Shown here piece by piece: positions 2,112-21,503 of a DNA stretch of 64,000 nt. The notes under the pieces were generated by a model. The model saw nothing but the letters and a program-made list of their open reading frames with translations. It did no database searches and was not told where the DNA came from. Position 1 is the first letter of the stretch; every line of letters starts with the position of its first letter. The stretch covers positions 22,330-86,329 of the forward strand of contig CAXHJY010001028.1 of the NCBI GenBank assembly GCA_964016885.1, written 5' to 3'. Source of the DNA: Eledone cirrhosa. Taxonomy: Eukaryota. The translations under genes and the position numbers were made by a program.

Positions 2112-2290
2112 GAAATTTCCCTGTGGTCCTTCAGGGTAAAGTGCGGGGTCTTTACCCTTAAAGGTTCAGTTCTGTCATCTAGTTTAAGGGACTTTGCTAT
2201 CTCTTTTCCAACTACATTCGTCTCAGTCAGAGCCATCTATTTCACCTTTTTGTAAGTGGTCGTGATTGCATTTTTGCCCAGGTAAGTCCA
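2112..2290 (-). pseudogene. Fragment of a second, diverged Naiad-like PLE reverse transcriptase
   Basis: [50 protein letters not shown] aligns with KELRKNYKK...KKLNIEDRTEPLALKRPHFNLKDH of the intact ORF; in-frame stop. Confidence 0.8.
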
Positions 2291-9713: not shown

Positions 9714-9755
9714 TGTGTGTGTAGTGTTGATGGTATCAGAGCCTTGGGACATATC

Positions 9756-9822
<67 letters not shown>

Positions 9823-9864
9823 TGTGTGTGTAGTGTTGATGGTATCAGAGCCTTGGGACATATC

Positions 9865-9917
<53 letters not shown>

Positions 9918-9971
9918 TTCATATATATTCATATATATTCATATTTATATATAAATATGAATATATATGAA

Positions 9972-10013
<42 letters not shown>

Positions 10014-10080
10014 ATGTCCCAAGGCTCTGATACCATCAACACTATAAACACAGAGCTGGAATACCTAAGAACTGACTAAC

Positions 10081-10132
10081 TGCCTGATGAGGTCATAGTC
10101 ATTCAATGGCTATCATCGAAATATATATAGTA
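10081..10132 (+). ncRNA. Minimal type I hammerhead ribozyme in a short TA-flanked element (about 10010-10176)
   Basis: tgc-CUGAUGA-ggtcatagtca ttcaa tggctatcatc-GAAA-tatata-UA-gta. Good stem II, palindromic stem III, but only 3 bp of stem I. Confidence 0.7.
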
Positions 10133-10545
10133 AATAAAGGATTATGAGTTCATGCAATTGACTTATGTTTCGTCACATATATATATATATATAAATAATG
10201 AACTTTTTTTGTTTAATATAAGGAATTGTTTATTCATTATTTGTTTAATATTTTATCTTGACTCTGTATACCGTTTATCTTTCACCGAAAGTGGATTTTC
10301 ATTACATCTCTTCTTTCCATGATATCCGGAATACATTGAGTTCTTCATACGGATTGGACACTACCGTAAACTCTTGGTAGATTTATCTACATAATTTTGC
10401 TCCTATTTTCACGGAAATATTCGTATTTTTGTACTGTATATGTGTATTAATTTTATATTTATGTATAAACATATATATATGTATGATTTTGTAAACCCAT
10501 ATACATTTAGTTGAGCTCTTTCAATTGTCCATCATCCATATCACA

Positions 10546-12987
10546 ATGGAAAAACAATATTTAGGAACCTCCTTAAAAAACATACCAATACCTTCTAAGG
10601 ACGACTTCTTACTCCTTATGATTCAGAAAACTAATAATTTTATCAGAAGGGTTAGATGGAGAGCCTACCACTTCGATAGAAAATCTAAACAAGCAGATCG
10701 GAAATATATGTATGATTTCAATACTTACAAGAATCCACCACACAACTTTTTACTTGAAGACTTCGAGAAAGACCTTTTTAATTTAATTAAACACCTCAAA
10801 TTTAAAAAGTATAAATCCGTCTTTCAAAAGGACCTTGATTCTACCCTATTGGACCTAAAAAAGTCTAAAAAAATCCATGTCCACTCGGACAAAACTGGTA
10901 ACTTGTATCATATGGATATTGAACATTATAATGAGTTCATATATAAAGAACTCAGAAAAAATTATAAAAAATCTAATAATGTGTCACTCACCAACATCAA
11001 CAACAAAACACACAACATAGTAAAAAAACTAAACATTGAAGATAGAACTGAACCTTTGGCATTGAAAAGACCACACTTCAACCTGAAAGATCACAAATCT
11101 AACTTTAACTCTAATCCTTCTATTAGACTTATATGTCCCTCCAAATCAGATATTGGAATAATTAGCAAAAAAATTTTAGATAGAGTCATCCCACAAATAA
11201 GAAAACACGTTATTTTACCACTCTGGGAAAACACCTCCCAGGTAATTAACTGGTTTAAAAATATTAGGTGTAAATCTTCTGCTTCTTTCCTACAATTTGA
11301 TATAGATAATTACTATTCTTCTATATCACCTATACTCCTGAACAAAGCATTAATATTTGCTAAAAATAGATCTAATTTAACTTCGGATGACATTAACATT
11401 ATTACACATGCTAGACTAACACTTATTGAATTTCAGAATGAATACTGGACCAGAAACACATACAGTAATCTTTTTGATATTACTATGGGTTCAAGCGATT
11501 CCGCCCAAATTACTGATCTTGTGGGCCTCTTTCTCCTTTTCAACATAAATGCCTCTTTTCCCCACCTCAAAGGTGGTTTATATCGTGATGACTGTCTTCT
11601 TCTTTCTAACAACCTTAGCCTTTCAGAAATCGAAAAAAACAAAAAACATATTAGAACTTTCCTTAAAGACTATTATAATCTTAATATTACTTTTGAAAAA
11701 ACAAGTAAAGTAGTAAATTTCCTAGATATAACTTTAGATTTAGCTACGGGTATATACCAACCTTACCATAAACCTAACCAAAACTTACATTACATACACT
11801 CACAATCTAATCACCCTAAATCTATCCTTAAAAACCTTGCATATAATATATCACTTAGAATTTCTAACCTTTCTTCTAACCAAGATGTATTTGATAAAAA
11901 TGCGACCTTTTATAATGAAGCTCTAGATAGAAGTGGCCACAAAAATAGATTAGAGTATATACCTTCTACTAAAAATACTGAAAGCATACAGCATAATATT
12001 ACCAACAAACACCAAATGAAAAATACACACCTAAATGCCACCCACAATATACCCCAAAATACTAAATCTTCTAATATAAAGTATAGTAACCCTCAAAAAA
12101 CTACTCATCATACAACTATAATAAATATTAATAATAAAACTCCTAATAAAAAAGATAAAACACCTAAATCTACAAATATAACTAAAAATAGTTGTGGTGA
12201 GATCATTAACATTAATCCTCCTAGTAAAAATCATGATACAACCTATAAAAATAATAAAAATAATAAACAACATAGAAACCGTAATAGACGAGTTACTTGG
12301 TATAATGCTCCTTTTAATTTACAAGTTAAGGATAATATTGCTAAAAAATTTTTTTATATCCTTGAGAAAAACTTCCCGCCAAACCACAAATACCATCAAA
12401 TCTTAAATAGGTCTACAGTTAAATTCTCATACTCTACAACAAATAACATAAAACAAAATATAAGTGCATATAATGCATATAAATGTAAGAAAACCATAAG
12501 TATACCACCAGTACATCAAATTAACAATAATATCTCCTCAAATACAGAATTAACGAAAGGATGTAACTGTAGAAACAAAACAAACTGCCCATTAAAAGGG
12601 AATTGTCTTGTTAACAACATAGTCTATAAATGTAATATTAAAACTAAAGATTCTATTTGCTCATATATAGGAGCTACCTCTAACAATTTTAAGACAAGGT
12701 TTAATACCCACAAGCATAGTTTTAAAAATGCCGCACTGGCTAATACAACATCTCTAGCAGAAAAAATCAATAGTTATAAAAATAAGAATATAAAATATGA
12801 TTTGACCTGGAGTGTGCTCAAAAGAGCCACCCCTTATCAAAATAATAGAAAGGAATGTAGATTATGTTCCCAAGAACTATTTGAAATAATGAAGTCTAAG
12901 GATATCTTATTAAATAAACGACAGGAATTAATTATATCGTGTAATCATAAACTAAAAAAAACATTTAAATATTATAAACCTAATTAA
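10546..12987 (+). CDS. Penelope-like element (Naiad-like) polyprotein: reverse transcriptase + GIY-YIG endonuclease, about 813 aa from the first ATG
   Basis: Uninterrupted ORF. N-terminal SLKNIPIPS...FIRRVRWRA; SDKTGNLY; LKDHK...RLICPSK; FLQFDIDNYYSSI; FDITMGSSD; catalytic GLYRDD (YRDD at 11581-11592); NFLDITLDL...YHKPN...SNHP thumb; Asn/Lys-rich linker; CNCR..CPL..C knuckle (12562); IVY...YIG (12664) with FKTRFNTH; CRLC and LLNKRQEL...CNH C-terminus. Confidence 0.95.
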   Translation: MEKQYLGTSLKNIPIPSKDDFLLLMIQKTNNFIRRVRWRAYHFDRKSKQADRKYMYDFNTYKNPPHNFLLEDFEKDLFNLIKHLKFKKYKSVFQKDLDSTLLDLKKSKKIHVHSDKTGNLYHMDIEHYNEFIYKELRKNYKKSNNVSLTNINNKTHNIVKKLNIEDRTEPLALKRPHFNLKDHKSNFNSNPSIRLICPSKSDIGIISKKILDRVIPQIRKHVILPLWENTSQVINWFKNIRCKSSASFLQFDIDNYYSSISPILLNKALIFAKNRSNLTSDDINIITHARLTLIEFQNEYWTRNTYSNLFDITMGSSDSAQITDLVGLFLLFNINASFPHLKGGLYRDDCLLLSNNLSLSEIEKNKKHIRTFLKDYYNLNITFEKTSKVVNFLDITLDLATGIYQPYHKPNQNLHYIHSQSNHPKSILKNLAYNISLRISNLSSNQDVFDKNATFYNEALDRSGHKNRLEYIPSTKNTESIQHNITNKHQMKNTHLNATHNIPQNTKSSNIKYSNPQKTTHHTTIININNKTPNKKDKTPKSTNITKNSCGEIININPPSKNHDTTYKNNKNNKQHRNRNRRVTWYNAPFNLQVKDNIAKKFFYILEKNFPPNHKYHQILNRSTVKFSYSTTNNIKQNISAYNAYKCKKTISIPPVHQINNNISSNTELTKGCNCRNKTNCPLKGNCLVNNIVYKCNIKTKDSICSYIGATSNNFKTRFNTHKHSFKNAALANTTSLAEKINSYKNKNIKYDLTWSVLKRATPYQNNRKECRLCSQELFEIMKSKDILLNKRQELIISCNHKLKKTFKYYKPN

Positions 12988-13510
12988 TAACATTATTCTA
13001 GAAATTAATTTAATTTAAATGTTAGTTAACCTATAAATTTAATTTAATTAATATTTTATTACAGATGAGAAAATATTATGTAATCATAAATTGTGAAAAA
13101 CCTTTAAATATTACTAATATATACTTAGTAATTTAATTTATAGATTAATTTTAATTTATTTAAACCTTTTATTATAATTCTTTTACAGATAAAATATAAC
13201 AAAATAATATCATGTATCCAATGACGGAGAAATAATTTTTAGTATTATAGACCTAATTAATATACATTTTGGAAATATATTTATTATTTGGTTTTAGTTT
13301 TAATCAACCTAAAAATTTTAATTTTAATTTGCTTAAAATTAGTATCCTTATACAGACGAATTGCAGAATGTCATGTAATCATAGAATGGGATGTGTTTTG
13401 GATATATACCTAGTTAATATATTCTGTGCAATTTTTTGAAAAAGATATGTATATGTATATGTGTATGTATATGTGTGTGTTGTGTATGTGTATCTGTATG
13501 TATGTATATA

Positions 13511-13565
<55 letters not shown>

Positions 13566-14713
13566 ATATGTATGTATATGTGTATGTGTATGTATATGTA
13601 TATGTATGCGTATTAATTTTGATTTCTATTTGCATATAATTATATTATGCTATTGATGAAATACAATATCTGTTTTATGTATTGTATACCTAATTAACAT
13701 ATACTAATTAACGTATACTATTGAAATAAATATATAATTTTTAATTTAGTTAACATATAATTTATATGCTACTACCGATGTAATACTTTATTTTATTTTT
13801 ATTTGGGTTTCTTTTCCCTATTACTAAATTCATCTCCTAATATTGATACCATAACGTTATTAACTTTAATTTAGTTATAATGTAATTAATAATCTACTAC
13901 TGTTTGACTTCAAAATTCTGCTTCAAATATTATAAACCTAACTAATTTACACCTTAGAAATCAATATGTTGACTATCTTTGGTTTAGTTAACATATGATT
14001 AATGGTATACTTATTTATTTTGAGATGCATAGATTTCGTATTTCCTAGCACTGAAAATATGTAAGAACATACATTGAATTAAGATACGGAAAATATTATA
14101 TGTTTCTTGAAACATATATTTACTTTGATCCCCTTCTCCAAACCCCCCCTTTCCCCCATACTATTATCATCTGTATTTGTAAGCGTCTATGTATGAATAT
14201 ATATGTAGGTAGGTGTCTATATAGGTTTGGGTATTTATATCTAAATATAAAAATACATATATGAGCATGCAAATATGAATGTAAGATTGTGTGTGTATAT
14301 ATGATTGTACATACATATGTATGTATATATATGTATATATATGCATTATATATGTATGTGTATGTGAATGTGTTGTATGTATATGTGTATGTATGTGTAT
14401 ATATGTGTATGTATGTGTATGCTTGTATATATAGGAATATATATATGTGTATATATGTATGTATATGTATATGCGTGTATGTATGTATGTGTATGTGTGT
14501 TGTGTATATATATGTATGTCTCTCTATTTATATATTTATCTTCGTATCTATGTGATATATGTGTGTGTGTGTGCACGTATGCATATGTATGTGTTTGTGT
14601 GTGTTTGTATGTGTGTGTGTATATGTGTGTATGTGCGCACACACACATACACATATATATATATATATGTGAGTGTGTATGTGTGTCTGTGTGTGTGTGT
14701 GTGTGTGTATGTG

Positions 14714-14751
<38 letters not shown>

Positions 14752-14868
14752 GATATATATATATATATATATATATAGGTGTCTATGTGTGAATATATGT
14801 CTTTATTCGTATGTGTGTATTTATGTATGTATATATTTATGTGTATGTATGTATGTGTATGTATGTAT

Positions 14869-14900
<32 letters not shown>

Positions 14901-15064
14901 GTATATATATATATGTATATTATTCTTTATTATTATAATATAACTTATGTGTATATGTGTATAAGTGAGGTTGTGTATGTATATATAATATGTGTATATA
15001 TAAGAGTAATAAAATATATATGTATATGTGTATGTGCATGTCTGTTTTTTATGTGTGTGTGTAT

Positions 15065-15098
<34 letters not shown>

Positions 15099-15235
15099 AT
15101 ACGTGTGTGTGTATGGATATATATATATATATATACATGTGGGTGTTTGTATGTGTATTTATGGTGGTATGAGTGTGTGGATATATATGTTTATGTATAT
15201 ATATATATATATATATGTATGAGTCTATGTGTGTG

Positions 15236-15271
<36 letters not shown>

Positions 15272-15594
15272 TATGTGTATATATATGTGTGTATATATAT
15301 ATATATGTGTATGTATGTGTGTATATATATATATCTCTATTAATGCGTGTGTGTATGTATATACATATGCCTTTTTATTATTATTTTTAGTTGTATGTCT
15401 GAGTTTGGTGAGGTTGTATTGTTTTTTATGTATATACACATATATTGAAGCGTATGTATTTATATATATGAGTATAAGTAGGTGCATATGTATGTATGAT
15501 TATATATCTAATTCTATGTATGAAGGTACATCTATATATATATATATACGTGTGTATGTAAGTTGTGTGTGTATGTATCTATATGTCTATGTGA

Positions 15595-15634
<40 letters not shown>

Positions 15635-15723
15635 CGATGTGCGTATATGTATGTACATGTATGTACATGTATGTGTGTATGTATGTGTTTGTATATTTAG
15701 ATGTATGTGTATGTATATGTATG

Positions 15724-15780
<57 letters not shown>

Positions 15781-16614
15781 ATATATATATATATGGATAT
15801 ATATCTTTATTATCTATTTTTTATATATATGTGTATGTGTGTATGTGTTGCGCGTGTGTGTGTGTATATATATATCTTTTTATATGTGTATGTGTATGTT
15901 CGTGTAAGTGTATGTGTGTGTATGACTGTATATGTATGTGTGTATGTGTGTATGCGTAAATATCTCTATGTGCGCGTACATGTATGTATGTGTATATATA
16001 TCTGTATGTGTATGTATATTATATTATATTTATTATATTTTATTGTTTTATTTTTTTTTATTTTTTTTTTTTTTTTTTTCTTAATTTATAGATACATTTA
16101 TATTAGGCAGTCTGCTCAGACAATTGAATACTGACCCCTCCCCCCCCTCCCACCTAATTTCTGTATCTTGATCTTGAAATGTGTGTGCCAGTGTTTTATG
16201 TGAGTGACTTAATTTCTATGTGCTTATGATTTTATATCCACATATATAAATGTGAGTGGGGGAGTGTGTGTGTTTGTATGTTCGTGGTTATGTGTATATT
16301 TATGCATATACGCGCATGTATGTGTGATTATACTGATATGTGTGAGTATGAAAAAATATATTTATATGCTTGACTCCATAAGTATCAATGCGCATCTTAT
16401 CAGCGCATTAAGCTTACAGAGATATTAACCTTGAAATTTTGTGTTTGCATCCATCTTTTTAGTATGCGTATACAAATTATACACACATTTTTGTAAAATA
16501 TGTGTAAGGATTTTACATGTATATACACACACCGAACTGCTTTTAACCCTTTGTGTTTTCATTGGTCAATTTTGAACTGATATTTTGAATTGTTGTTATT
16601 ATCAATAAATATAC

Positions 16615-16769
16615 TTCATTATTTCTGAAGACGGCGTATATATGTGTTAGGTATGTATATTTAATCTTGATAATTTGTATAATTTTGTATAATTTTGTAC
16701 ATAGATCTGTTGAATATGCATACCAATTATAACACATATATACCCTAGAAACGATCGTTAAATAATGAA
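16615..16769 (+). ncRNA. Type I hammerhead ribozyme of the PLE, with about 115-nt stem II
   Basis: Stem I ttcattattt (16615-24) / aaataatgaa (16760-69); CUGAAGA 16625-31; long stem II (gtatatatgtgtta/taacacatatatac and ggtatgtatatttaa/ttgaatatgcatacc); GAAA 16748-51; palindromic stem III cgatcg; GUU cleavage triplet ending at 16759. Confidence 0.85.
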
Positions 16770-16814
16770 CTTTTTTTGTTTAATATAAGGAATTGTTTAT
16801 TCATTATTTGTTTA

Positions 16815-16889
<75 letters not shown>

Positions 16890-21088: not shown

Positions 21089-21237
21089 TATATACATATA
21101 TATATGTATGTATGTATATAGATATATATATAGATATATGTATATATATATATTAAGATAAGCAGAACAAGTAAAATTCAATCAATTTTTCAAAATACAT
21201 TAAAAAATATAATATAAATATTTACCTCTTCTAGTGG

Positions 21238-21316
21238 CCCTTACTGATCAGTTTCGCTTTGTAAAACCTCATAAATCCGATGGATTTATGATGGAAAACC
21301 AAAGCTCATCAGAGAA
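21238..21316 (-). ncRNA. Type I hammerhead ribozyme in a TA-flanked element (about 21150-21480)
   Basis: Minus strand: ttct-CUGAUGA-gctttg...tcataaatcc atc ggatttatga...caaagc-GAAA-ctgatcag-UA-aggg. Canonical core, palindromic stem III, GUA site. Confidence 0.82.
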
Positions 21317-21503
21317 GCATTTTCCCTTCCTAGGGCTAAACGTCCCAGGAACGACAAAATATACAACCTCCTGCCAGCTAATAAAGGTCTGAAAGGTCGT
21401 AAAATTGACCCGTATGTAAACTGGACCGAAGTAAAAGCGGGAAAATCAAAGACTTGCTGTCTACAATTACTACTAAAAAAATATATATATATATGTATGT
21501 ATG

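Follow-up and report, generated by a model that had tools for sequence, protein, structure and literature searches.

A stretch of 64,000 nucleotides (nt) from Eledone cirrhosa (assembly GCA_964016885.1, contig CAXHJY010001028.1, positions 22,330–86,329 of the forward strand; hereafter the window) carries a young, intact Penelope-like element (PLE) that we assign to the Hydra clade. We think that the element's own enzyme probably made this copy: a (TA)n target was nicked, reverse transcriptase (RT) began 64 nt beyond a hammerhead ribozyme cut site on an RNA whose 3′ ribozyme was joined, and copying likely stopped at a cut 5′ ribozyme. Signed positions count from the predicted ribozyme cut, with +1 at window position 10,193 or 16,760 and −1 at 16,759. 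The copy is laid out as follows.

10,193–16,823, plus strand: one unit (6567 nt) of a Hydra-clade PLE with a 64-nt 3′ overrun, in (TA)n
10,178–10,192: 5′ (TA)n target run, its final TA common to element positions −1/+1
10,193–10,256, plus strand: 5′ copy of the 64-nt repeat, +1 to +10 being the 3′ strand of ribozyme stem I
10,233–10,242, plus strand: +41 to +50, a repeat of the stem I 5′ strand and its predicted competitor
10,393, plus strand: position +201, the family's second fixed 3′ end (putative RT start), unused at the 3′ end of this copy
10,546–12,987, plus strand: open reading frame (ORF) of 813 amino acids (aa), RT then C-terminal GIY-YIG-type nuclease; motifs by residue are RWR 37, DKT 115, YRDD 346, CxCx5C linker 673, GIY-YIG-type 692 and CxxC..N..CxH 771
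12,988–16,759, plus strand: 3′ untranslated region (UTR), 3.8 kb, about 57% simple TA/TG repeats, part of the unit in other copies too
16,560–16,567, minus strand: CCAAT box in reverse orientation, 58 nt before the main 5′ end of the family, a putative promoter element
16,615–16,769, plus strand: type I hammerhead motif, stem III palindromic, cut predicted at 16,759/16,760
16,618, plus strand: A at −142, the main 5′ end of family insertions and candidate capped transcription start
16,760–16,823, plus strand: 3′ overrun as far as +64, the first of the family's two fixed 3′ ends (putative RT start), then (TA)n
16,822–16,886: 3′ (TA)n target run

The ORF is free of stops over its whole length, and 10,192–10,256 and 16,759–16,823 form a 65-nt direct repeat, the common T included, that is 100% identical. 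Since the ORF differs by only 4–7 of 2442 nt from the five nearest of ten copies compared, the copy is very young as well as intact, in agreement with the original prediction made from the letters of the window. A separate insertion of 16,615–16,823, which that prediction had named as a possible refutation, is ruled out for this locus, as the segment follows the 3′ UTR in the same placement in long copies.

The clade assignment is based on motifs and domain order. In the single ORF, RT precedes the GIY-YIG-type nuclease, as judged by motif, and the same order was seen in 42 of the 42 homologues showing both motifs, among 118 found by protein search (best 40% identical). RW[KR] occurs in 72 and DK[TS] in 112 of these 118, and the ORF itself has RWR and DKT, together with the Hydra-clade linker CxCx5C and CxxC..N..CxH. 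Neither DKG/DKA, in whose place DKT stands at 115, nor RxxEH was found in the ORF, the latter motif serving as a stand-in for the CCHH finger. A Pfam search of the ORF gave no family match, and named Hydra reference proteins were absent among the protein search matches. The hammerhead near the 3′ end and the (TA)n target are both Hydra-clade traits. In the account of Craig et al. (2021, PMC8557442), this clade has RT then GIY-YIG, RW[K/R], DKT, CxCx5C, CxxC/CxH around E and N, and no CCHH, and its ribozymes in supplement S2 often have two extra bases flanking stem II and a GUU site; our element resembles it in domain order, motifs, (TA)n target and core-inserted hammerhead. The original prediction had called the element Naiad-like, and with Naiads it does share a (TA)n target, a pseudo-long terminal repeat (pLTR), inverted arms and a tail. 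Naiads, however, are described in the same paper as having the nuclease at the N-terminus, DKA, CxC and IFD, and as lacking a canonical hammerhead, and Naiad identity is ruled out by the C-terminal nuclease, the DKT and the canonical hammerhead found here. Unlike the Hydra elements listed there, which measure 1.1–3.0 kb, the unit is 6.6 kb long because of its 3.8-kb, microsatellite-rich 3′ UTR; family units span 6.0–6.9 kb, outside the general shortness of the clade (<3 kb), which is not a diagnostic trait. Further differences from these listed elements are a stem II of ~110 nt, ~8000 or more young end modules and a nearest database protein at 40% identity. Elsewhere in the window (2120–2257, minus strand) lies a 46-aa piece of a related PLE, 50% identical to ORF residues 139–184.

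The ribozyme, whose position and predicted cut after U16759 we could confirm from the original prediction, was read from the sequence. Stem I has 10 bp (16,615–16,624 with 16,760–16,769), and the core CUGAAGA from 16,625 is followed by the long stem II, set between an extra C and an extra A, and then by GAAA, a stem III of 2 bp built on the palindromic CGAUCG, and the GUU triplet. The features of a type I hammerhead are thus present: a CUGANGA/GAAA core, three helices and an NUH site. The region folds with z = −6.6 against 200 shuffles, and pairing is kept in 99.2% of 514 cells over 20 copies with one compensatory pair, the shuffle control being weak for related sequences. In 18 of the 20 copies, stem II opens with a G-U pair and not with G-C. 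An Rfam search did not list a hammerhead among its matches at E ≤ 1, which were microsatellite noise. Modelling of a precursor with a single ribozyme predicts that +1 to +10 pair with +41 to +50, leaving stem I a probability of 0.0; such a failure of stem I would leave short templates uncut. As a separate observation, the cut triplet is GUA and not GUU in a common subfamily, a change linked to a downstream variant (L005:1500; runs X1, X4, X5).

The 5′ end of the window copy coincides with the predicted cut, as had been claimed; the stated one-base ambiguity is in fact a 2-nt TA. To place this end in the context of the family, we counted exact sequence patterns in the source genome (3.0 Gb). 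Here, 7903 copies read through −8 to +27 and 268 lose homology within −6 to +8, both being lower bounds, since exactly seven T were needed in the run and the read-through pattern misses the GUA variant. Of the 30 best matches to the 5′ end (of 40 listed), 29 extend upstream through the ribozyme, and the window copy alone starts at +1. The original prediction had named upstream extension of other copies as a refuting outcome, and a family-wide 5′ end at the cut site is indeed ruled out by the read-through of 29/29 other top copies and by 7903 against 268. A (TA)n run stands directly before +1 at six places: besides the window copy, these are three tail-only inserts (~60–70 nt) and two that run to +201; 219 starts lie at −142/−143 right after TATAT, compared with 6 at +1 after ATATAT.

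Junctions were then read at 194 of the 268 places, with near-identical places merged, 68 unlisted places, 3 indel rows and 2 further rows left out, and 8 read-through indels dropped from the 194. Inverted junctions formed through 10–12 nt of stem I complementarity recur (L071, L075, L202, L218, L243 and others); these look like starts at the cut site and have to be excluded when such starts are counted. A peak at +1 among short copies, with an uncorrected p of 0.003, was rejected at p ~0.1 once the GUA variant was allowed for. The weighted density of ends is ~7 per base at −6 to −1 and ~16 per base at +1 to +8 (bases −6 to +8 covered). Long copies, defined as running past +201, behave differently from short ones: 4 of 186 places are long copies ending within −6 to +8, all at +1 to +3, compared with 50 of 181 for short copies at +1 to +3 (p 0.007; p 0.018 for −1 to +3). 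From the background of 12 ends in ~1430 nt among 29 long copies, 0.1–0.6 long-copy ends would be expected in −6 to +8. Locus L270 is a full unit running from +8 to +201, and L234 is two-armed, with long arms starting at +1 and +10.

Several points weigh against a cut 5′ end. Read-through of the site is seen in at least 96% of the copies counted. After correction for microhomology and for the GUA subfamily, +1 shows no significant excess of ends, whether among clean junctions (7/57, p ~0.1) or among those with at most 1 nt of microhomology (9/84, p ~0.1). The +1 to +3 window for long copies was chosen after the ends had been seen, all four loci fall in the first half of the sample, with 0 long copies in the second 95, and +1 to +4 is A/T-rich, with 3-nt microhomology at two of the four junctions. 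At the window copy itself, the 2-nt TA microhomology with the (TA)n run leaves the breakpoint anywhere between −1 and +2. The end could thus be a chance truncation, in which cDNA from an uncut read-through or multimeric template was joined via the TA at −1/+1; agreement with the cut would then be fortuitous or due to RT pausing at the base of the ribozyme helices. That the AT at +6/+7 holds as many ends as +1 (32 each), that clean junctions show no significant +1 peak, that the window junction has its TA and that 5′ truncation is general in PLEs (PMC8557442) would all suit this explanation. We nevertheless consider it unlikely, since all four unselected long copies in the 14-nt window end at +1 to +3, above background, and since the end density is about twofold higher downstream of the cut than upstream, with a downstream smear like that at −142. 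Because long copies ending near the site do so at +1 to +3, a cut 5′ end is the likeliest origin of the window copy, which probably derives from a cut RNA template by a minority route; ends at the cut account for roughly one in a hundred long copies. The ribozyme-processed template of the original prediction is therefore retained as probable for this copy and given up as a rule of the family. For self-cleavage by the ribozyme, the ends near the cut are no more than indirect signs.

The 3′ end of the window copy follows a family-wide pattern. Of 65 arms (loci L097–L136), 34 end at +64, 30 at +201 and 1 is long; both fixed ends lie at a TA shared with the target, and all 13 long stretches agree. 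Because about half of the arms use the same fixed end, the 64-nt overrun reads as a family-wide fixed RT start, corresponding to the tail already described for PLEs, and by itself needs no circle. The original prediction, which had called for a circular or concatemeric RNA or an uncleaved 3′ ribozyme, thus stands in that the 3′ ribozyme was uncut or re-ligated in the template, but not in any need for a circle. In head-to-head insertions, picked by their 5′ side and not by their 3′ ends, an arm ending at +64 is paired with one ending at +201 in 62 of 66 cases (p 1e-14 against 50%), the remainder being one 64/64 pair, one long/long pair and two unclassified. The commonest insertion form runs from +201 back to −142 and then from −142 to +64. 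A dimeric RT that primes the two target strands would be expected to produce one start per arm.

pLTRs, inverted arms and tails are already known in PLEs (PMC8557442), and ribozyme pairs 100–700 bp apart on opposite strands have been noted (PMC4209133). Poseidon PAc of the anole Anolis carolinensis (Frangieh et al. 2024, PMC11167929) is reported to use two RT starts in vitro, with extension on both strands and a predicted dimer. Our family resembles it in having two fixed starts downstream of the ribozyme, in uncut RNA in the anole case, an AT-rich target and a tail that equals the stretch between the starts. It differs in that the starts are 137 nt apart instead of 30–40, and, relative to the account in that paper, in that 62/66 genomic pairs have one start per arm and some long copies end at the cut.

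The pile-up of 5′ ends that the original prediction sought at 10,193 is found at −142 and not at +1: 1380 copies start exactly at A(−142), while 3105 continue to −152. A hand-picked set of 40 stretches of contig C1, in which short pairs are over-represented, has 34 of its 64 arms ending at −146 to −134. This site is probably a capped transcription start. By hand count, 32 of the first 100 rows listed have a G before A(−142) (p 2e-4 against 17%), and the G is untemplated in 10 of 31 distinct arms that have no template for it in the other arm; an extra G has been described as a mark of capped LINE-1 and SVA RNA (PMC4859970). Moreover, a CCAAT box lies 58, 69/70 or 73–76 nt upstream of −142 in 30 of 46 read-through copies (58 nt in the window). 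An identical 8-mer is found in family B, a second PLE family that is the upstream neighbour of the element and whose flanks match the C-terminus of the window ORF at 34–40%. There it lies 58 nt before TC/A, the start of 9 of 30 copies, with 18 running farther upstream and 3 stopping elsewhere (30 of 36 exact-match loci). A contig in run X5, which carries another organism label, also starts at −142, has an inverted arm as a loose end, and shows ends at +64 and +201.

Three observations count against a capped start. By hand count, no more than 12 of 100 rows flanked by (TA)n show the extra G, and TG is common in these repeats; the family B start has ATAT microhomology with its target, which could inflate its count; and AATAAA lies 9–14 nt before −142, so that 3′-end cleavage could also make that end. 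The pile-up might thus reflect a 3′-processing cut after the AATAAA at 16,604–16,609, which the CA at −143/−142 and arms starting at −141 or −140 would fit, or it might be the trace of a few short master elements. Both seem quite improbable to us, given the extra G before A(−142) and the equal distance of the CCAAT box in two families; in addition, the junctions vary by locus and fall into several subfamilies, and therefore represent independent events. The window copy probably has no promoter of its own because the upstream repeat is lacking, and short copies would likewise be promoterless since the CCAAT candidate lies upstream.

In Drosophila virilis, the Penelope transcript is described as starting in the upstream pLTR, as we propose here, and a solo ORF flanked by 34-bp direct repeats, similar in form to the window copy, has been reported (Schostak et al. 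2008, PMC2377424). The Penelope promoter, by contrast, is internal and downstream of the start, whereas the candidate CCAAT box is upstream. We found no literature report of one RT start per arm or of a CCAAT-linked 5′ pile-up in PLEs, in a search that left subscription papers mostly outside and on which the supplements of PMC11167929 and of a retrozyme preprint (10.64898/2026.07.22.740005) may bear; the abstract and discussion of that preprint contain nothing on insertion ends.

The site that holds the studied element is itself the (TA)n tail of a 3′ end module of the second PLE family (window 9714–10,177). This module has a hammerhead core at 10,084, with 36 exact genome copies of the core, and two duplicated inverted arms (~9714–9756 and 9823–9865), with an extra G before the first A of the sense arm. 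A third short hammerhead module (core 21,312) lies on the minus strand at 21,150–21,480 between (TA)n runs and is probably the end of another PLE family.

Long copies do not share the −142 end. None of 29 stops there, nor any of the 27 that reach that far in a second, overlapping set of 29, and the nearest long-copy ends are at −222 and −224. Long cDNAs made from intact capped RNA would be expected to stop at −142 as the short arms do. Several other loci carry an intact 813-aa ORF, some as arrays of two or three units. Within one array the units differ by 0–2 nt in the ORF, compared with 18–21 nt from the window's nearest group, and in a second array by 3 nt. Loci L264–L266 are one insertion, with an inverted arm and three intact tandem units of ~6.06 kb each that have private variants in common, and L267–L269 are likewise one insertion, with an inverted arm and two intact tandem units. 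Near-identical tandems and long copies that pass −142 are consistent with a circular template, and also with template jumps or read-through copying. Dimer-dependent cutting, ligation and more-than-unit copying were proposed by Cervera and de la Peña (2014, PMC4209133), and a ribozyme with palindromic stem III and proposed dimer dependence is common to their circular-RNA model for PLE hammerheads and retrozymes and to our family. Their account offers no in vivo evidence; the insertion ends described here give the model indirect, not decisive, support.

The family might also do without a circle, with RT leaving the capped −142 end and switching, by way of the 142 or more nt in common, to the 3′ repeat of its own template or of a second RNA, or copying read-through transcripts of arrays; ribozyme cutting would then be a minor side reaction. 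Such a cycle, which would be compatible with a cut end for the window copy, is a serious possibility, if one that we do not favour. Uncut and re-ligated RNA give identical junction sequences, junctions often show template jumps and duplications, transcription could run through whole arrays of two or three intact units, and cutting is reported to be dispensable in vitro (PMC11167929). On the other side, about a third or more of arms stop at −142, yet no sampled long copy does, and ribozyme pairing is kept across subfamilies, with the cut base U or A in the variants listed. A further point tells against cutting: for the anole element, uncut RNA is described as the main substrate, with no reads ending at the cut (PMC11167929). 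Cleavage, capping and circles are here proposals drawn from insertion ends; among the public runs listed as containing the sequence none was of RNA, which counts neither way.

Together, these ends suggest a cycle for the family. A capped RNA would start at −142 under a promoter located at the 3′ end of the upstream repeat, and a two-subunit enzyme would prime both target strands, one at +64 and the other at +201. Where the 5′ sites of uncut RNA are used, the common 550-bp head-to-head insertions meeting at −142 would result. An RNA with two ribozymes would fold a dimeric ribozyme, undergo cleavage at either site and probably be ligated into a circle, from which upstream repeats of random length and tandem units would arise; the window copy would be a half-processed intermediate. 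That the insertion ends record this whole cycle in vivo, comprising a capped −142 RNA, a dimeric RT-nuclease with two sites, a ribozyme that cuts only as a pair within one RNA, circles that regenerate the promoter repeat, and a window copy trapped half-cut, is a proposal we make tentatively.

Both PMC8557442 and PMC11167929 leave open the role of the hammerhead in PLEs and the origin of tandem and inverted PLE structures. The single window copy proves little by itself, and the useful part is the family-wide map of ends: a single start site for each arm, the main 5′ end at −142, no sampled long copies there and a small group at the cut. With thousands of young insertions, base-exact ends and several intact ORFs, the family makes each step of the cycle numbered and directly testable.

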